Virus record (IMG/VR): IMGVR_UViG_3300009103_000015
Location: 1 to 64,000 of that record
From: a virus
Direction: 5' to 3' (one strand)
DNA: 64,000 nucleotides
A model generated the notes under the pieces. It was given only the letters and a program-made list of their open reading frames with translations, was not told the DNA's origin and made no database searches. The translations under genes and the position numbers were made by a program. Every line of letters starts with the position of its first letter. The first letter of the stretch is position 1. This document shows positions 7,863-22,658 of this stretch, in pieces.

Positions 7863-8078
7863 ATGCCAACAGATTCTGGAACTGGAACTCGTATTCTAGC
7901 ACAGTTAACAGGTGGAGATAAAACCGTTCAACAATTACTAGATAATATTACAGTTCCAAGTGGAAAGAAAACAAAAAGACATCAGTTGAAACATTGGTTA
8001 GAATATATGCTAACGAATGGAACAGTTAGTATGGCAAGTGGAACAAAATGGCATTCAGCTACATGGCATAAGGAATAG
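7863..8078 (+). CDS. Small winged-helix-like protein
   Basis: Pattern RILAQL-GGDKTVQQLLD...LEYMLTNGTV; own TATA-like box at ~7831. Confidence 0.5.
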   Translation: MPTDSGTGTRILAQLTGGDKTVQQLLDNITVPSGKKTKRHQLKHWLEYMLTNGTVSMASGTKWHSATWHKE

Positions 8079-8192
8079 AAATAGAATTGACACGTGGTAA
8101 AGTTTTAATTTGTTTAGAGTGTGGTGAATCTCCACGCCAGTGTGAATGTTTAACAACAAAACCTATATGGATCACATTGAAAGAAAAGATAG

Positions 8193-8630
8193 TTGCCAAA
8201 CAAAAACAAGATCAAAGGCACACGATTTGAATACGAATGGATGTATTACCTAATCTATCATCATTTTGATAATGTAAGATCATACGCAAGTAAAGGAGTT
8301 GCAGATGTTAGATCAGTTCCTCCAAGATGGGCTACAACAAAATTAGCATTGGCAAGTCAATGTAAGAATACAAAGAAAGGAGATTACATTGATCCAGCAG
8401 AACGTAGAAGATTGAAAGCATTTAATGAGAAATTTGCATACATAACAATAGAACCTTTCAAAGTAAATAGAACTTGTTTAGTGAAAATAGAACCTTGGTC
8501 ACTGAAAGGTAAACATCTACCACCTGATGAGTTTCTTAGAAAGTTCTATGGAATAAGTGCAGACAGTTGGTATGAATATAGAAGAAATTGGAAACGTGGA
8601 ATAAAACGACAACCGATATCAAAACGATAA
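8193..8630 (+). CDS. hjc: Archaeal-type Holliday junction resolvase (Hjc-like PD-(D/E)XK nuclease)
   Basis: KGTRFE, VRSYASKGVAD and SQCK match the Hjc motif order. Confidence 0.65.
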   Translation: MPNKNKIKGTRFEYEWMYYLIYHHFDNVRSYASKGVADVRSVPPRWATTKLALASQCKNTKKGDYIDPAERRRLKAFNEKFAYITIEPFKVNRTCLVKIEPWSLKGKHLPPDEFLRKFYGISADSWYEYRRNWKRGIKRQPISKR

Positions 8631-8670
8631 TCATCAATACATATTTTAGGTGTAAGACTGCGTTTAATGT

Positions 8671-9270
8671 ATGGTCAAAATACCAAAACCTGAAATGTTA
8701 GATCCAGAATCTCTTAAACCTTATGAACAGAATATCAAAGTTCATACTGAATCTCAAGTAGAAGGTATAATGAACAGCATGAAGAAATTTGGATTCTATG
8801 CTCCTATCGTAGTAGATGGAAAGAAGAATGTCATAATAGGACATGGAAGGTTAGAAGCTTCTAAGAGATTAGGTCTGAAAGAAGTTCCTGTTGTTAAACA
8901 GAAAAACATTTCAGAAGCAGATGCAAAGGCACTAAGAATTATTGATAATAGAATATCAGAAGTTGATTGGGATATTGATAACTTGAAATTAGAAATGGAT
9001 GATTTGAAAGAGTTTAACTTTGATGATTTCCATGTAGATTTAGAAGATCTATACACACCTAAATTACAAGACATTAACATTGACATAGATACTACTGACG
9101 AAAAGATGAAAGCATATCTTGAAGGTAGTGTTAAACAAATTACTTTGATATTCAGCAACGAAGAGTTTGAAAGAACAATATCACGAATGGAAAAGGCAGG
9201 TCAAGAATTAAAAGCTGAATCAAATACTGAAGTTCTGTTAAAACTACTAGATCATTACGAATCTCAATAG
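8671..9270 (+). CDS. ParB/Srx N-terminal domain protein
   Basis: LKPYEQN..H...SMKKFGF.APIVVD...IIGHGRLEA.K.LGLKEVPV...DNRISE. Confidence 0.85.
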   Translation: MVKIPKPEMLDPESLKPYEQNIKVHTESQVEGIMNSMKKFGFYAPIVVDGKKNVIIGHGRLEASKRLGLKEVPVVKQKNISEADAKALRIIDNRISEVDWDIDNLKLEMDDLKEFNFDDFHVDLEDLYTPKLQDINIDIDTTDEKMKAYLEGSVKQITLIFSNEEFERTISRMEKAGQELKAESNTEVLLKLLDHYESQ

Positions 9271-9303
9271 AATACTTAATAACATTATAAGACGATTAAA
9301 TTT

Positions 9304-10320
9304 ATGAAACTTAAAGAAATTCAACTGGAAAGAAATGAAATTACTAACTGGAAAGAATATGTAAAGCGACCAGCTAGAGATGATGACTATGAAACAATGT
9401 TAACAGAATCTTGCAAACTTATGGAAGGCGAAAAATTAATTGGTGTCTATATTGTATTACCTAAAACAAAAGAAACTGAATTATTGAGAGAAGTTGTGAG
9501 AAGAATAAATTATAATAGAAACAAAAGAACCTCTGGTTTGACTACAAATTCAAAGGTATTTGGATATCTTCCTAGAGAGATAATTAGAAAAGATTATTGT
9601 TCTTCTGCTGATTTAGCTACAACGAATGCAAAATATCATGCAGTTATTACACAGTTCGGAGAAACTCTAACTAAGAATTACAAAGAAAGTTGTCCAGAGA
9701 TGTTTGAATATCATAATGGAATAACAAAAGAAAAAATAAAAAAGGAATGGGTTATCAATAATACTCCATACACTTCAGGTATAATTAACAAAGATTCTCA
9801 ACTTAATTATCATTGGGATAGAGGAAACTACAAGAAAGTATTTTCAAACATGGTTGCTTTCAAAAACAAATGTGAAGGTGGACATTTAGCAATACCTGAA
9901 TACAATATTGGTTTAGAAATAGCAGATCTATCATTAACTTTCTTTGCTGGTCAAGAAGTTTTACATGGTGTCACTCCATTCAGAAATAATCAAGGTGGTT
10001 ATAGATACACTCTAGTTTATTACACAATGAATCAGATGTGGAAATGTGAAGATGTTTCAAAAGAAGTTGCTAGAATAAGAGAAAGAAAAACTCAACGTGA
10101 AAAGAACAGAGTGTTAAGATTACAGGGAAAGTTATCTGAAGAAGATGATCCAATAGGACAGCTTAGACAGAAAGTGAAAGATCCAAAACAATATATGAAT
10201 TATAATATATTTGCAGAATTAGGTATAGATAGAAAGTATCTAGGAGTTCCATTCACAAGGCTTCCAAAATACATACAAGAAAAATTAGTTCATTACAAAC
10301 AGAAGGAAAGAAAAGAATAA
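9304..10320 (+). CDS. TET/JBP-like 2-oxoglutarate/Fe(II) dioxygenase
   Basis: HxD (YHWDRGN), GG.L.IPEY, distal His (VLHGVTP) and 2OG-binding Arg (YRYTLVYY); adjacent to ParB as in viral TET/JBP loci. Confidence 0.8.
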   Translation: MKLKEIQLERNEITNWKEYVKRPARDDDYETMLTESCKLMEGEKLIGVYIVLPKTKETELLREVVRRINYNRNKRTSGLTTNSKVFGYLPREIIRKDYCSSADLATTNAKYHAVITQFGETLTKNYKESCPEMFEYHNGITKEKIKKEWVINNTPYTSGIINKDSQLNYHWDRGNYKKVFSNMVAFKNKCEGGHLAIPEYNIGLEIADLSLTFFAGQEVLHGVTPFRNNQGGYRYTLVYYTMNQMWKCEDVSKEVARIRERKTQREKNRVLRLQGKLSEEDDPIGQLRQKVKDPKQYMNYNIFAELGIDRKYLGVPFTRLPKYIQEKLVHYKQKERKE

Positions 10321-10460
10321 TGTTTACAGGTTTGGCAGACATTAATTCATTCTGGTCTATAATATCAATTTGTTTTTTCATTGGTGGTCTAACTATTGGT
10401 TGGGTTGCTAAAGATTGGAAGAAATCAGAAAAGCGTAGAGGTGATGGAAGATGGGATTAG
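10320..10460 (+). CDS. 46-aa single-TM membrane peptide (not in ORF track)
   Basis: MFTGLADINSFWSIISICFFIGGLTIGWVAKDWKK...; TAATG coupling to the upstream gene. Confidence 0.6.
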   Translation: MFTGLADINSFWSIISICFFIGGLTIGWVAKDWKKSEKRRGDGRWD

Positions 10461-10732
10461 GTAGAAAGTTCTTTTCAAATGTTTGGGGAAAACCTGAATG
10501 GAGTTTACCAACAGAAGATGAAGTCACTAAAAATATTATTAAACTTAGAAAGGATATAGAATCCATGCCCAACTCTCCTGAAAAAACAAAAGCAGTTTAC
10601 ACTTTAGCAAATCAAATGCAAATACTTAGATTAATTCTACATGAAAAGAAGAAGCAGAAATACAGACCTGATGCAAAAGGAAAATGGGTTTGGATAGATG
10701 AAGAAGAATATCAGGGAAGAAAATATGAGTGA
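10451..10732 (+). CDS. Hypothetical protein
   Basis: 93-aa ORF overlapping its neighbours. Confidence 0.6.
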   Translation: MGLGRKFFSNVWGKPEWSLPTEDEVTKNIIKLRKDIESMPNSPEKTKAVYTLANQMQILRLILHEKKKQKYRPDAKGKWVWIDEEEYQGRKYE

Positions 10733-10844
10733 CGTAGATGAATTTCATGAGAGGGCATGGGTTTGTAATCACCCAAACTTATTCTTCAAAGAGTTCAAAT
10801 TTTATTGCAGAGTTTGTGGAAAGGAAGTTCCGAATGGAAAATGA
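10725..10844 (+). CDS. 39-aa Zn-binding microprotein (not in ORF track)
   Basis: MSDVDEFHERAWVCNH...YCRVCGKEVPNGK. Confidence 0.55.
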   Translation: MSDVDEFHERAWVCNHPNLFFKEFKFYCRVCGKEVPNGK

Positions 10845-10935
10845 TGAAACAAAATACTGTATCGAGTGTGGACATTATTATAATGAAAATCATAACGGTG
10901 AAAGAATAATGTGCGAGTGTGAATGTCATGGTTGA
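10834..10935 (+). CDS. CxCxCH microprotein
   Basis: MENDETKYCIECGH...CECECHG; start re-assigned from 10738. Confidence 0.55.
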   Translation: MENDETKYCIECGHYYNENHNGERIMCECECHG

Positions 10936-11191
10936 AGCTCCAACGTGTGGAGTTTGCTTAGCAACAGCAGAAGGAGAACATCAATGGATTCCATCACATC
11001 TAAAGAATGATGATAGATTTACTTTTACCTGTAAATGTAAATGTCATAATGGTAAAGAAGAATTTCAAGAAGCACATAGAAGTAAAGCTTACAACATAAA
11101 ACATTGTATCTACTGTGGGAAGAAAGATTTTAAAGACTTTGATGAGGTATTAGATCATGTCAGAAGAGAATGTAAAAAAAGAAACGTGTGA
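10919..11191 (+). CDS. CxCxCH plus C2HC Zn-finger protein
   Basis: CGVC..H..CKCKCH and CIYC..HVRREC. Confidence 0.6.
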   Translation: MNVMVEAPTCGVCLATAEGEHQWIPSHLKNDDRFTFTCKCKCHNGKEEFQEAHRSKAYNIKHCIYCGKKDFKDFDEVLDHVRRECKKRNV

Positions 11192-11291
11192 GAGATGTGG
11201 TAATGAAATGGATAATCTAAGTGCCTGTCACTTGAGATGTTCAAACTGTGGTGTTGAATACGATTGTTCAGATAAGGGAACTACATGGTAA
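11157..11291 (+). CDS. 44-aa Nitrosopumilus-like CxxCG Zn-ribbon microprotein (not in ORF track)
   Basis: MSEENVKKETCERCGNEMDNLSACHLRCSNCGVEYDCSDKGTTW; recalled as resembling a thaumarchaeal small-protein family. Confidence 0.65.
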   Translation: MSEENVKKETCERCGNEMDNLSACHLRCSNCGVEYDCSDKGTTW

Positions 11292-11842
11292 AAATAATTG
11301 CTATCGGTGGAGTAGCTGGAACTGGAAAGACAAAGATAATTCAAGACTTTATCAAGAAATCAAAAGATTGGAAGGTATCAAAGCCTGAAAAGACATTGGA
11401 TTCTATTTACAGTGAAAAAATGAATTGTTTTGTTCTAGGAAAATATGATCCATTCTATGAAGGTGAAGGTTATGCACAGGGAACTGATAGATTAAGTATG
11501 TCAGTTCAACCACACGCTAAAAAATTCTTCAAGAATCTAAATTCAAACTGTATTTTTGAAGGAGATAGGTTATACAATCAAAAGATGTTAGAGTTTCTAC
11601 TAAATGAAACCAATCACGAATGTTTATTCCTAATTCTAGACTGTAAATCAGATATGCTAATTCAAAGATACAGAAAAAGAAATAGTGAACAGTCTGCTAA
11701 ATTCATTCAAGGTAGATTTACAAAGTATAACAACATAATACGCAACATGAAATCAAACATAACAATAGTAAAGAATGAAACAGAATCAGATTCCAAGAAG
11801 ATTTCTAAGATAATCAACAACTTTATATTGAATGTCAACTAA
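11285..11842 (+). CDS. P-loop nucleotide kinase of the viral DNA-hypermodification type (5-hmU DNA kinase-like)
   Basis: Walker A GGVAGTGKT; LGKY....GTDRLSMSVQP; IFEGDRL. Confidence 0.7.
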   Translation: MVKIIAIGGVAGTGKTKIIQDFIKKSKDWKVSKPEKTLDSIYSEKMNCFVLGKYDPFYEGEGYAQGTDRLSMSVQPHAKKFFKNLNSNCIFEGDRLYNQKMLEFLLNETNHECLFLILDCKSDMLIQRYRKRNSEQSAKFIQGRFTKYNNIIRNMKSNITIVKNETESDSKKISKIINNFILNVN

Positions 11843-11914
11843 TACAATGCATAGAGATCCCTCCGTCAATATACTCTCATTCCGAAAGTAATGGGCGAAC
11901 AAACCATTACCAAA

Positions 11915-12802
11915 TTATTCTAGATTAGAATTATATTTTTCCATTAAATGTTCAACAGAAGCATTAATTATTTCTTCTATTGAAACTTTGTTTGGCATTA
12001 AACCGTTTAGACCACCAAACCCATCTGTATTGTAAATCTGTCTTAACATTTCTCTATCTGCAATAGGTATATCATCGTAGATAACTGGAGCAAAAGGATT
12101 CATTATTGGAAACATCAAACTTGGTAAATCATTTCCAAACTCTTGATCTTCTATATAATGACCAACTCCTAATGCGTGAGCATATTCATGTCTAATTATT
12201 TTTTGAATTGCTTCAGTTGGCATTGGTTTTGCTGTAAGATCAATCTTGTATTCTTCTTTCTTTTCATCACTACATCCTATACAAAAAGTAAAGTTCTGAC
12301 CAATTTCTATACTATCTAGATAAACCATAATGAAAGCCCATTGATGTTTAGAATGAGAAAAGTCAATAGAAGTATAACCTAGTGCTTTTTGATTTGGAAT
12401 GTGTTGACCTGTATTCTCTTTTGCAAATTCTATGAAAATACTACATTCAGAAAAATCTAATACATTCTTATCAAAATGGTTTTCATAATAGACTAATTTC
12501 ATTGGAATATCCCAACCACCTTCTTTATAGAATCTAGTATCTTGAGAATAACTATCCATAGCATCACTCCATTCTTGAACTGTTAGAATAGTCATAGTTA
12601 AGATTCCATCATAGAATCTATCTTGAATTTCTGGAGCTGGTTCCATGATACAGGTCATAGGATTATCTTTATGATATATTCCAGAACCCATAGTTTCTAT
12701 GAAATCTGCGTGGGCTATACCTAATGGTAAAGTGGTCACAGTAGTAGATAGAATGAGTAGAGTAATCAAGAAAATAGAAAGAATCTTCATCATTATTATC
12801 AA
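11915..12802 (-). CDS. Secreted metzincin (matrixin/M10-like) metallopeptidase
   Basis: N-terminal signal peptide ending AHA; HEYAHALGVGH; Met-turn SLMFP; only convincing minus-strand gene. Confidence 0.8.
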   Translation of the reverse strand: MIIMMKILSIFLITLLILSTTVTTLPLGIAHADFIETMGSGIYHKDNPMTCIMEPAPEIQDRFYDGILTMTILTVQEWSDAMDSYSQDTRFYKEGGWDIPMKLVYYENHFDKNVLDFSECSIFIEFAKENTGQHIPNQKALGYTSIDFSHSKHQWAFIMVYLDSIEIGQNFTFCIGCSDEKKEEYKIDLTAKPMPTEAIQKIIRHEYAHALGVGHYIEDQEFGNDLPSLMFPIMNPFAPVIYDDIPIADREMLRQIYNTDGFGGLNGLMPNKVSIEEIINASVEHLMEKYNSNLE

Positions 12803-14012: not shown

Positions 14013-14435
14013 ATGTTGCATCCTGAAAAGAAAGAAAAGAAAAAAGAAGTTGATGATAGAAGGGATATGGTAAATAAAATGTTGATAAAGGGAGCAACTC
14101 AATTAGAAATATCAAACCAACTAAAAATTTCCATTAGCACAGTTGAACGTGATGTTAAAGTAATAAAAGAAAATGCTAGTAAGTGGTTAGATGATTTAGC
14201 AAAGAAAGGTATTGTCCATGAATGGAAACAGGGATTAGAAAAGTTAAGAGAAACTGAAAGAAAACTAAATCAAATATTGCAAGAAAAGGAATTATCAAGA
14301 GATGATACACTTAGAATTTTAAAACAAAGAGATGAAAACATAGCATTACAAACTCAATTCTTAATGGATGGTCCAGCACTTCACGCCATAAAATCTCACA
14401 TGAATGATATAGGTGAAATTGATGACCACTTATAG
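14013..14435 (+). CDS. terS: Terminase small subunit (HTH)
   Basis: HTH ATQLEISNQLKISISTVERDV plus helical C-terminus; immediately upstream of TerL. Confidence 0.65.
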   Translation: MLHPEKKEKKKEVDDRRDMVNKMLIKGATQLEISNQLKISISTVERDVKVIKENASKWLDDLAKKGIVHEWKQGLEKLRETERKLNQILQEKELSRDDTLRILKQRDENIALQTQFLMDGPALHAIKSHMNDIGEIDDHL

Positions 14436-16206
14436 AAGTAAGATTCAAACCTTCGTTAAAACAAATACGAATTGGTTAGATGACGAAGAAGAACTTCCAG
14501 AATTACCAACTGATATTAAACAATGGATTAACGTAGCAAGACCTTTTGTTGAAGGTCAACAGATGAGAAGAAGTTTTCTAACGATTCCATTTTGGGAAGC
14601 AATCTATGAAGATAAGACACAAGACATAATGGTTGTCGCTGGAAGACAGGTTTACAAATCTACATTCGCAACAGATATTCTAGCAAATTATACTACCAGT
14701 AGAAACAATATTTCAGTTTGTTATGTAAGTTATGATGATGTTAACAGAAACGCTTTCAGTAATCAGAAATTAAGAGTTGGAACGTTTCTAACAAATCCTA
14801 TTCTACAAAGATTTCCACGTTCTGGAAAGAGTGCTGGAAACGTAGGAGAAGTTCCACTGAAAAATAATTCTACAATATATGTGACAACAGATCATTGGGG
14901 TTATAGACACGTAGAAGGAAAGTCACTTCAGGTTTGTATTCTAGACGAAGCACAATATCATGATATACAATTCTTACCTAAATTGCAAGAAGCTATGACT
15001 GCAACGAAAGGAAGATTATACATTCTAGGAATTGGTGGAGAAGCTGGTTCTCCATACGAAAGATTATGGAATGATACTGATCAAAGAGAATGGATTTACG
15101 AAGATGAGAATTGGAGAGATAAGTTGAAGTTTGATAAACATGGGTTAGTGATTGGAGATTATATGAAAGATATTTTGAAAGGTAAATGGAAATCAAATAA
15201 ACCTCACAATAAACTCTTTCATGGTTATCATATTCCACAATACATAGTTCCAACAATACCTTTGACAATAGATGATGCTGTTAAGAAATACAAACTACAT
15301 CCAAAGTTCTCGATAGAATGGAAGAAGAAACATAATCCAACTTCAATATTCAATTCTCATGTTCTTGGTGGATTCTTCCACGCTTTGAGAAGACCTGTCA
15401 CTAGGGAAATGGTAGAAGCTTGCATGGAATCTGATAAAGTATTGTTAACTCCAAGCCAGATAGCTCAAATCAAAGACAAACAACAAAACAAAGTTAAGAT
15501 TGCATTAGGAGTTGACTTTGGTAGCAGTCCTTCAAAAAGTGCAACAGTAATCTGTATTCTAATTCATTGGAGAGAAACTGATAGATATCAAATGGCATTT
15601 ATGGAAAAAAGACCAGCAGAAAATCAGATGGATCAAGCACAATACATAACAAAGTTGTTTGGTAAATGTAAATGTGATATAGGATTCGGAGACTTAGGAT
15701 ATGGAGCAATTCAAGTTAAAACAATTCAAGATGGTGGAGCAGATAGAACTTCTGGAGAAATATTTGAGGGAGTGACATCTCAAAGATTTGTAGGTTGTAG
15801 AACCGTTGGAGATGAAAGTAAACCTATGATGAGATATGATAAGAAAGTAGATGAACATGGAGAGGTCACAGGTATGATTAAACTAGACAAGACAACTATA
15901 ATCCAAGAGTTCATAGATTTGTTAGAAACTCAAGTTCCAGATAAGAAAGAACCTGAAAATGAAAAGCTAGCAAAAATGAAGTTAAGAATACCTAGTAAGA
16001 AGGATTGGGAAACAGATTGGTTGATTGATGAATTTTGTGAGATAACTCGTAGAGATCTAGATGAAATGGGAGATGTCGAGACAGGTGTTGATAAACGCAT
16101 GAAAGTCAGGAAACTCTTCAACCATCCTAGAGATTCTACAATGTCTGTGATTTATGCAATGAAAGCTCTAGAATTTACGAGTGAATGGCATTGGGTTTCA
16201 GCATAA
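14413..16206 (+). CDS. terL: Terminase large subunit
   Basis: Walker A AGRQVYKS, Walker B VCILDEAQ, RNase H-like ALGVDFG, GFGDLGYG, C-terminal HPRD. Confidence 0.85.
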   Translation: MKLMTTYRSKIQTFVKTNTNWLDDEEELPELPTDIKQWINVARPFVEGQQMRRSFLTIPFWEAIYEDKTQDIMVVAGRQVYKSTFATDILANYTTSRNNISVCYVSYDDVNRNAFSNQKLRVGTFLTNPILQRFPRSGKSAGNVGEVPLKNNSTIYVTTDHWGYRHVEGKSLQVCILDEAQYHDIQFLPKLQEAMTATKGRLYILGIGGEAGSPYERLWNDTDQREWIYEDENWRDKLKFDKHGLVIGDYMKDILKGKWKSNKPHNKLFHGYHIPQYIVPTIPLTIDDAVKKYKLHPKFSIEWKKKHNPTSIFNSHVLGGFFHALRRPVTREMVEACMESDKVLLTPSQIAQIKDKQQNKVKIALGVDFGSSPSKSATVICILIHWRETDRYQMAFMEKRPAENQMDQAQYITKLFGKCKCDIGFGDLGYGAIQVKTIQDGGADRTSGEIFEGVTSQRFVGCRTVGDESKPMMRYDKKVDEHGEVTGMIKLDKTTIIQEFIDLLETQVPDKKEPENEKLAKMKLRIPSKKDWETDWLIDEFCEITRRDLDEMGDVETGVDKRMKVRKLFNHPRDSTMSVIYAMKALEFTSEWHWVSA

Positions 16207-21779: not shown

Positions 21780-22658
21780 TTGATATACATGGTAATTCTT
21801 TCAAAGAAAGATGGAATCACAGATATACCTTCTTGTGTTATAACAGATACCTATGCAAATGAAGGATTAGTTTACAATGAAGGAGTTCAATTTTCAACAG
21901 ACTTAGAAATAGATGAATGGAAACATAAATGGAATCCTGAAAAAAGAGAGGGAAAAGATTACGGATATGTCACATACAAATTATTGAAAGGTAGAGAATC
22001 AAAATCATTTCCAAATTCTAGTTTTGAGCATAAAGCATTAACCGTAGCATTGAGAACATGGGGATTGAGAACAAAGAATATTAGATTCAAAAGAATTTAC
22101 AATGAAAATGAAGTTGCAGATATTGAAGTAAAATTTGAAACTAGGGAAGAGAATGATTATTTCAGAGATAAACCAACTGTTCTAGCATACGCATATTTTC
22201 CTAATGGAAAAAAGATTGGTGGAGATATGGTATTCAATGATTCTATTTGGTGGTCAGAAGATGGAGAATCAGTAAATGCACATGAATTAGATCCTGATAA
22301 TTATCCAGCAGATACTAAAACCCAAATAAAGACATACAATCTAGTTCACGTAATGATACACGAAGCTGGTCACGCATTAGGCTTGAAACATCAAACCAAA
22401 TGTAAAGAATGTGTAATGTATCCTTATTATTCTGGAAAGGTTGTTCTTCATGATGATGGAGATAGAATGTTTAGAGTTCATGGTTCAGAATACCCATTGA
22501 CCAAAAAAGCCTACGATTATTATGTAAAGAATGGATATACTCCAGAACCAATAGAAATGCCACACGATGTTGATAGAATACAAAGTTTCTATGGAAAAAG
22601 AACCTTAAGTCAAAGAATTATTGATTATTTTAGACGTAGAAATGAAAGGAAGTATTAA
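21780..22658 (+). CDS. Matrixin-family (M10) zinc metallopeptidase, no signal peptide
   Basis: ADIEVKF, VLAYAYFP..IGGD, HEAGHALGLKH, Met-turn VMYPYY, DVDRIQSFYG. Confidence 0.9.
   Translation: MIYMVILSKKDGITDIPSCVITDTYANEGLVYNEGVQFSTDLEIDEWKHKWNPEKREGKDYGYVTYKLLKGRESKSFPNSSFEHKALTVALRTWGLRTKNIRFKRIYNENEVADIEVKFETREENDYFRDKPTVLAYAYFPNGKKIGGDMVFNDSIWWSEDGESVNAHELDPDNYPADTKTQIKTYNLVHVMIHEAGHALGLKHQTKCKECVMYPYYSGKVVLHDDGDRMFRVHGSEYPLTKKAYDYYVKNGYTPEPIEMPHDVDRIQSFYGKRTLSQRIIDYFRRRNERKY

Follow-up and report, generated by a model that had tools for sequence, protein, structure and literature searches.

Which DNA base would a virus make that couples a TET/JBP dioxygenase to a DNA base kinase and encodes no recognizable enzyme to follow the two? 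The question is raised by IMG/VR virus record IMGVR_UViG_3300009103_000015, a complete genome of 77,876 bp whose first 64 kb are the stretch analyzed here (hereafter, the window). Between positions 8671 and 11842, the plus strand of the window encodes a ParB-like protein, a TET/JBP dioxygenase, and a P-loop kinase. We lean, without great confidence, toward a two-enzyme, ParB-assisted, post-replicative modification of thymine in a tailed virus probably of the Nitrosopumilaceae, in which T would be converted to 5-hydroxymethyl-uracil (5hmU) and then to 5-phosphomethyl-uracil (5-PmdU), the latter being preferred as the mature mark. A sequence-only reading of the locus had likewise seen a post-replicative thymine pathway in the combination of ParB, TET/JBP, and hypermodification-type kinase, and this core idea is supported by the pairing of the dioxygenase clade with ParB (76 of 80 loci) and by the kinase sharing phrog_800 with gp54 of Pseudomonas phage M6, as described below.

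The dioxygenase, its ParB-like neighbor, and the kinase

The dioxygenase (338 aa, positions 9304-10320, plus strand) is a TET/JBP (5mYOX) Fe(II)/2-oxoglutarate (2OG) enzyme and probably a thymine dioxygenase. It matches the Pfam family Tet_JBP (PF12851) at 9e-11 and 41.7 bits, above the cut-off of 34.9, and scored 42.8 bits when the six-frame translation of the genome was searched. Residues H170, D172, H221, and R234, which make up the Fe(II) triad HxD...H and the 2OG-binding arginine, are invariant in an alignment of 30 sequences. The AlphaFold2 (AF2) model has a pLDDT of 89.9, and its best Foldseek matches are CcTet, NgTET1, CMD1, and TET2 (E about 1e-12 to 1e-8), with ALKBH3/AlkB, ABH2, and FTO weaker by four to five orders of magnitude (E about 1e-7 to 2e-7). 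The intact HxD...H...R enzyme directly after a ParB gene that the sequence-only reading had described is therefore present with its key residues invariant, the TET/JBP profile search that it proposed passes the cut-off, and the structural comparison favors TET enzymes over the AlkB or prolyl hydroxylase grouping that it had named as the contrary outcome. Sequence searches against solved structures gave no useful match for either the dioxygenase or the kinase.

About 90 mostly helical residues lie C-terminal of a conserved WKCE cysteine, C248, in the dioxygenase. C248 may be the counterpart of C280 in 5mYOX176. Members of the closest dioxygenase sub-clade (324-342 aa) share a C-terminal module, …F.ELGI….G.PFT.LP…QKKL..YK, at residues ~295-338; the module is missing from clade members of ~280 aa and may be a ParB or DNA contact.

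The ParB-like protein (199 aa, positions 8671-9270, plus strand), a probable activator of the adjoining dioxygenase, ends 33 nt before the dioxygenase start. Its residues 20-93 match Pfam ParB_N at 3e-7, above the cut-off, the protein matches phrog_620 at 3.6e-39, and it resembles the N-terminal CTP-binding domain of M. xanthus ParB (7bnk). No helix-turn-helix (HTH) family was detected in it by Pfam and PHROG searches. The GERRxRA box reads GHGRLEA in this virus, the clade consensus being GGNMRLxA.

The genomic company of the dioxygenase was surveyed at the 80 IMG/VR loci with the closest TETs (41-87% identity). Of these, 76 include a ParB from the protein cluster of ours, 62 a TET-associated glycosyltransferase (TAGT, PF20691), and 46 a large terminase, placed after ParB-TET; three have the kinase.

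That kinase (185 aa, positions 11285-11842, plus strand) is a putative 5-hmdU DNA kinase by phrog_800 and family-profile hhalign, and it starts 965 nt past the dioxygenase stop. The ORF is intact and keeps all 27 family-invariant residues. Across the 32 homologues that were profiled, invariance extends to Walker A (GxxGTGKT), a basic lid, and GTDRLSMSVQP and FEGDRL, the two motifs that had been picked out from the sequence beforehand. The match to phrog_800 is full length at 5.7e-16, where M6 gp54 scores 2e-39, Rhodococcus phage Tonitrus gp7 1.7e-23, and Caulobacter phage Cr30 gp114 4.7e-24. M6 gp54 is a 5-hydroxymethyl-deoxyuridine (5-hmdU) DNA kinase in vitro, with 5-phosphomethyl-dU (5-PmdU) as its product (Lee et al. 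2021, PMC8989533). When the kinase-family profile was compared by hhalign, it aligned with gp54 at 92.9% (E 3.7e-7, over 124 columns that take in G.DR and FEG) and, over the full length, with Tonitrus gp7 at 98.6% (E 1e-15), gp7 itself being a strong member of Pfam Ploopntkinase3 (3.6e-50). These two alignments and the PHROG shared with gp54 answer the P-loop kinase profile check that had been suggested for this gene.

Homologues of the kinase at 40-54% identity match PF18751 (1e-6 to 3e-10). The Pfam matches of the virus protein are to generic P-loop families, and there are weak hidden Markov model (HMM) matches to guanylate kinase, dTMP kinase, and dNK. Its AF2 model (pLDDT 93.3) has a plain nucleoside monophosphate (NMP) kinase fold, for which a fold search returned only generic adenylate, guanylate, and UMP-CMP kinases at E ~1e-4; we know of no solved 5-HMUDK structure with which the model could be compared.

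Two database labels were set aside as carried-over annotation errors and not taken as evidence, namely that of phrog_800 as "terminase small subunit" and that of phrog_6059, the TET/JBP PHROG, as "queuine tRNA-ribosyltransferase". RefSeq misnames the proven kinase M6 gp54 "terminase small subunit" in the same way, and many mycobacteriophage TET genes bear the wrong queuine tRNA-ribosyltransferase name. Cr30 gp114 belongs to the same kinase family at 36% identity; some 7 kb from it, a TET/JBP domain opens an SNF2-annotated protein with a JBP2-like architecture, and an inositol-1-phosphate synthase lies between the two genes. A second kinase of our virus, located past the window at genome positions 72446-73021, was considered as a ViI-like paralogous base kinase and rejected, being polynucleotide-kinase-like (AAA_33 7e-12, phrog_505 9e-14) with no match to the base-kinase HMM.

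As to the virus itself, the record has 119-bp direct terminal repeats, a completeness rating of 100%, and a G+C content of 33%. The named cellular relatives of its RadA (45-51% identity) all belong to Nitrosopumilaceae, Cenarchaeum, or Nitrososphaerales, and a Nitrosopumilus metagenome-assembled genome holds one relative of its TET. Because the named relatives of RadA and TET are Nitrosopumilaceae, the host is probably archaeal, which sustains the archaeal-virus setting proposed earlier; assignment to the Nitrosopumilaceae, ammonia-oxidizing archaea (AOA), is probable, and these sequences support it without proving it. No tRNA genes, sought as an aid to host assignment, were found in the 64-kb window. 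ParB, TET, and kinase all lie upstream of an HTH protein that is the probable small terminase (TerS; 14013-14435, plus strand; HTH matches Trp_repressor and Sigma70) and of the large terminase (TerL; 14413-16206, plus strand; phrog_675 8.7e-28). TerL starts 2.6 kb past the kinase, so the spacing in the sequence-only reading (kinase about 1 kb past the dioxygenase, terminase about 2 kb further on) is close to what we measure. This is a tailed virus, of a lineage with Nitrosopumilaceae-related cellular genes. Other annotated genes in the complete genome encode RadA, a MoxR-type AAA ATPase with a VWA partner, a Cas4-like nuclease, and the polynucleotide-kinase-like protein, and about half of the ORFs have no family match.

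Partners of the kinase family and the slot after ParB-TET

The context of the kinase family was examined at 80 IMG/VR loci and 80 metagenome loci, the latter obtained with an alignment query (a metagenome scan with the single kinase sequence gave no matches). An amino acid:DNA transferase (AADT, PF18724) lies near the kinase at 138 of the 160 loci (72/80 viral, 66/80 metagenome). All eight viral loci lacking it have the kinase at a contig edge with fewer than 600 nt upstream, and the same short upstream sequence (<600 nt) applies to 11 of the 14 such metagenome loci; the other three exceptions are L237 (963 nt upstream), L243 (whose cluster runs off the contig edge), and L166. Among the IMG/VR loci, TET/JBP stands beside the kinase in 53/80, a glutamine amidotransferase (GATase) in 43/80, and a GNAT acetyltransferase in 39/80. 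By association, then, we have here the base kinase that serves thymine hypermodification cassettes primed by TET; Iyer et al. predicted such cassettes, and Lee et al. 2021 (PMC8989533) described them.

The kinase tree unites the virus copy with that of L166 in a single clade (SH-aLRT 100). Its sister group consists of AADT-linked kinases (95), among which it is nested, so the state without AADT is derived. Since dN/dS against the L166 copy is ~0.11 (dS ~1.5), the kinase has been kept under purifying selection without an adjacent AADT.

None of the usual partners could be found in the genome of this virus. Searches of the six-frame translation of the complete genome with Pfam models detected no AADT, TAGT, GATase, or GNAT, and HMMs derived from related loci, run with --max on the same translation, found none either (best E for AADT 0.58). 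With hhalign, the AADT profile reached a highest probability of 1% against every ORF of at least 100 aa, and the TAGT and c15 glycosyltransferase-like profiles at most 9%. No C5-methyltransferase (PF00145), N6/N4-methyltransferase (PF01555), or thymidylate-synthase-family dUMP hydroxymethylase (PF00303) was matched in the complete genome, which therefore has no source of 5-methylcytosine (5mC) or of pre-replicative 5hmU. The sequence-only reading had recognized no C5-methyltransferase, glycosyltransferase, or aGPT-PPlase in the window, and their absence extends to all 77,876 bp.

Two places were considered for a hidden transferase. The 965-nt gap between TET and kinase is about the size of an AADT gene, and a degraded AADT there was rejected because the six-frame HMM search finds none; the gap holds small Cys-rich ORFs, partly kept in a sibling virus. 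The minus-strand ORF of 295 aa at 11915-12802 was also rejected. It encodes a metzincin-like metalloprotease with the motif HExxHxxGxxH and an N-terminal hydrophobic segment, and it is kept in siblings whatever their cassette (91% identity in L085, 25% in L166). A second metzincin-like protease is encoded in the window at 21780-22658.

The closest view of the locus comes from that syntenic sibling virus, L085 (IMGVR_UViG_3300032006_000102), which is 87-96% identical and shares 90% amino acid identity in ParB, 87% in TET, 92% in TerL, and 91% in the minus-strand metalloprotease. By blastn, homology with L085 covers 7873-10826 and 11175-11293, with a gap at 10827-11174, and resumes at 11810. Within the first block, a 46-aa ORF with one hydrophobic stretch (10320-10460, plus strand) overlaps the TET stop and is 100% identical in L085 at the amino acid level, against 87% for TET. 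A 93-aa ORF (10451-10732, plus strand; 84% identical in L085) is the last gene in common before the variable slot and has no Pfam or PHROG match. It is followed in the ORF list by two plus-strand Cys/His-rich ORFs with CxCxCH motifs, of 65 aa (10738-10935) and 90 aa (10919-11191), for which no Pfam or PHROG family was matched; most of 10738-11191 (namely 10827-11174) is missing from L085. Small Cys/His-rich ORFs with CxCxCH (CECECH, CKCKCH) sit immediately 5' of the leading cassette gene both here and in L166 (174-453).

Last before the kinase comes a 44-aa zinc-ribbon ORF (11157-11291, plus strand; a stop-to-stop ORF with an ATG at 11157), the stop of which overlaps the kinase start (ATGGTAA). 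The stretch 11175-11293 is 84% identical to L085, where the zinc-ribbon ORF overlaps the start of a sugar dehydrogenase in like manner. Both cassettes thus begin at the same ATGGTA, overlapping the zinc-ribbon stop. The body of the variable "second step" cassette, as defined by the blastn borders and by alignments of both borders, is 11294-11809 (plus strand), 516 nt of the kinase. L085 has in its place 2.45 kb comprising a UDP-glucose-dehydrogenase-like gene and two TAGTs (by Pfam). Since these stand exactly at the kinase position, the slot after ParB-TET is a swappable cassette for the second step. At L085:5616-5650, the last ~8 codons of the kinase (…IINNFILN) are left as a non-coding relic, which suggests that the kinase occupied the slot before the glycosyl cassette of L085 did.

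Other relatives fill the slot in further ways. In L086 it encodes a GT1-like protein together with the dehydrogenase and an FkbM methyltransferase. TAGTs occupy it in L088, along with a PIG-L deacetylase and a radical SAM/SPASM enzyme, and AADT plus kinase in both L098 and L104. A second syntenic swap pair is formed by L091, with a GT-like protein and a PIG-L deacetylase, and L104, with its AADT and kinase. Because siblings fill the slot with glycosylation or AADT plus kinase cassettes, the same 5hmU primer would be decorated differently from one virus to the next. The 2.9-kb metagenome contig L166 carries the TET 3' end, a dehydrogenase (59% identical to that of L085), a kinase (74-77% identical to the virus kinase), and the metalloprotease, with no AADT in the slot.

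Beyond the slot, between the convergent kinase and metalloprotease genes, lies a conserved intergenic element (11843-11914). About 57 nt of it are identical in L085, compared with 84-92% identity for the flanking coding DNA, and its GGGCGAACAAACCA core is kept in L166 as well. Its predicted fold is no better than that of shuffled sequence (z = -0.9 and -0.8). The element could be a shared terminator or a border for cassette recombination.

The mature mark and the competing explanations

In the pathway that we favor, the TET/JBP enzyme together with the adjacent ParB would act on double-stranded DNA and convert sequence-limited thymines of the finished viral DNA to 5hmU, as family membership and the published biochemistry of relatives suggest. 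Phage thymine dioxygenases of this kind require their ParB in order to act on double-stranded DNA, oxidize just some of the thymines, depending on sequence context, and occur in clusters with links to kinases, AADTs, GATases, and glycosyltransferases (O'Toole et al., PNAS 2026, PMC13229309). The kinase would then move one ATP phosphate to the hydroxyl of 5hmU, giving 5-PmdU, a step to which its homology to proven 5-hmdU DNA kinases and its gene context point. A third step is apparently missing, which would leave 5-PmdU, a negatively charged base, as the mature mark; it is preferred in this role because neither an AADT or glycosyltransferase nor any other known tailoring enzyme is encoded in the complete genome. 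The sequence-only reading had left it between 5-phosphomethyl-U as the end product and completion by a gene outside the window. That choice is now narrowed, given that the rest of the genome has no recognizable finishing enzyme. That the pathway of this virus truly stops at 5-PmdU is nonetheless only a tentative suggestion of ours. The wider proposal, in which 5-PmdU would be the finished base of a minimal ParB, TET, and kinase set in AOA viruses and one of several interchangeable, hot-swapped decorations, is a step more doubtful.

Several points weigh against the pathway as we have drawn it. The kinase family is otherwise coupled to AADT, and a stop at 5-PmdU has no precedent. An unrecognized transferase could be among the roughly half of the ORFs that match no family. 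PF18751 is matched by homologues only, the kinase protein itself giving no match at E values up to 10, and the CTP-box of this ParB is degenerate. Both the substrate (T or 5mC) and the product are deduced from sequence rather than from chemistry. Lastly, restriction sites that contain T are wholly purged (GTAC, 0 observed against 159 expected).

This last point speaks to what the mark could do. Over the whole genome, GAATTC (40 expected), CAATTG (30 expected), GCNGC (55 expected), and CCNGG (55 expected) are likewise at 0, as are CCGG, GGCC, GCGC, CGCG, ACATGT, CCATGG, CTATAG, GTATAC, and CAGCTG; the earlier remark that restriction sites are purged is fully borne out by these counts. Because sites containing T are purged too, the mark would be no blanket shield against restriction, which agrees with the partial, context-limited oxidation described for ParB-dependent enzymes. 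The local role, for instance in packaging, that the sequence-only reading had raised is conjectural. Among the relatives examined (L085, L086, L088, L090, L091, L104, and L166), loss of GAATTC, CAATTG, and GGCC is common. GTAC avoidance differs by cassette: it is complete in both members that bear the kinase, this genome (0 against 159) and L166 (0 against 9 expected), while L086, with its methyltransferase, dehydrogenase, and glycosyltransferase, has 34 against 29 expected. CCGG is plentiful in L088 and L090. In this small sample, there are hints that different marks protect different sites.

The explanation that survives best beside our own, though we think it somewhat unlikely, accepts both steps and differs in what follows. 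Here 5-PmdU would be an intermediate whose phosphate is displaced by an unrecognized viral protein, a host enzyme, or an abundant cellular nucleophile, with a bulkier thymine derivative as the outcome; on the viral side, the candidates are the ORFs without family match, which are many, or the Cys-rich small proteins beside the kinase. It draws strength from the related loci with enough flanking sequence, which couple the kinase family to the phosphate-displacing AADT, and from the known pathways, where 5-PmdU is the common intermediate and not the product (PMC8989533). The insert beside the kinase that is specific to this genome also holds the two Cys/His-rich ORFs, and the kinase of L166 adjoins a UDP-glucose-dehydrogenase-like gene. 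Against it, no ORF of at least 100 aa resembles AADT, TAGT, or the c15 family (hhalign maximum 9%), the small ORFs, at 44-93 aa, could not accommodate a transferase fold of any known type, and none of the candidates is retained alongside the kinase both here and in L166.

It is improbable that the kinase is an ordinary (d)NMP kinase of nucleotide salvage, lying near ParB-TET by chance, in which case the mark would be 5hmU. The generic fold-search matches at E ~1e-4, the weak HMM matches to guanylate kinase, dTMP kinase, and dNK, and the lack of an AADT speak for this reading. They have to be set against the full-length match to phrog_800, the PHROG of the proven DNA-base kinase M6 gp54, the G(T/L)DR and FEG family motifs held in common with gp54, the nested position of the kinase clade within AADT-linked kinases, and the fact that the kinase takes the place of glycosyltransferases at an identical start codon in the sibling.

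Lower still we place a pathway on cytosine, in which the TET-like enzyme would act on 5mC laid down by the host and the kinase would phosphorylate 5hmC. Some phage 5mYOX enzymes are indeed 5mC dioxygenases (PMC13229309), and characterized T-dioxygenases are reported to oxidize 5mC in vitro too. However, members of the ParB-linked clade are thymine dioxygenases (PMC13229309), proven kinases of the same family act on 5hmU (PMC8989533), and the genome encodes no C5-methyltransferase. At 33% G+C and with CCGG, GGCC, GCGC, CGCG, GCNGC, and CCNGG all at 0, it also lacks the typical targets of host C5-methylases.

Least credible of all is that an AADT plus kinase cassette has left the kinase behind as a decaying remnant which no longer contributes, and that 5hmU alone is the functional mark: the clade does derive from AADT-linked kinases and the L085 relic shows that the gene can be lost, yet the ORF is intact with all 27 family-invariant residues, dN/dS is ~0.11 at dS ~1.5 against the L166 copy, and the kinase start is translationally coupled to the upstream ORF.

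The locus matters in several respects. To our knowledge, bacteriophages are so far the sole setting in which thymine hypermodification begun by a ParB-dependent TET/JBP has been demonstrated, little work exists on DNA hypermodification in viruses of archaea, and a phosphorylated nucleobase has been seen solely as a biosynthetic intermediate. The locus is a natural "minimal" pathway in which a base kinase is selected without its usual transferase. If 5-PmdU is indeed mature, it would be a new natural, negatively charged DNA modification; if it is displaced, an unknown enzyme class would be removing the phosphate. The swap with the sibling at one start codon also illustrates clearly how the DNA chemistry of viruses can be varied while the 5hmU primer stays constant.

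Relation to known modification systems

The nearest described system is clade C1 of the 5mYOX enzymes (5mYOX176/ParB176, PMC13229309). As there, a short ParB-like protein lies directly 5' of the TET/JBP gene, its N-terminal domain being nucleotide-binding and a DNA-binding domain not being evident; no C5-methyltransferase neighbors the pair, which adjoins the terminase genes and has a P-loop kinase linked to it. The helical sequence past C248 may correspond to the C-terminal extension of that clade. The differences are that the virus here probably has an archaeal host, the published enzymes being from bacteriophages and less than 1% of the superfamily being archaeal (PMC13229309), that the CTP-box of the ParB is degenerate (GHGRLEA), and that the pair lacks AADT, GATase, and glycosyltransferase.

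With the proven 5-hmdU DNA kinases (PMC5889632, PMC8989533), the virus kinase shares PHROG 800, a length of ~185 aa, the P-loop, the G(T/L)DR and FEG motifs, and a position beside the enzyme supplying 5hmU in DNA. In the cultured phages, however, 5hmU comes from a dUMP hydroxymethylase before replication, while here it would come from TET after replication, and the kinase is there always accompanied by the AADT that this genome lacks.

The metavirome cassettes of TET_JBP, 5-HMUDK, and AADT (aGPT-Pplase2) with GATase and GNAT from Lee et al. 2021 (Fig. 2, sequences 22-25) have TET followed by the kinase, as here, and the virus kinase is phylogenetically nested among the cassette kinases. Rhodococcus phage Tonitrus gp1-gp7 has ParB, TET, AADT, Ploopntkinase3, and terminase in the same order. 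Unlike in these cassettes, AADT, GATase, and GNAT are all missing from our locus. Pathways of the base J type (TET/JBP plus TAGT, PF20691) are close as well, in that the TET and ParB clade is usually flanked by a TAGT (62/80) and the closest sibling, L085, has two in the same slot; in our virus, that slot has no TAGT or other glycosyltransferase and is taken by the kinase.

The association of ParB, TET, and kinase that the sequence-only reading had put forward as if novel was already in print (PMC13229309, PMC8989533). What is new here is the probable archaeal-virus setting, a kinase without its transferase in a complete genome, and the swap of cassettes resolved at the level of base pairs.

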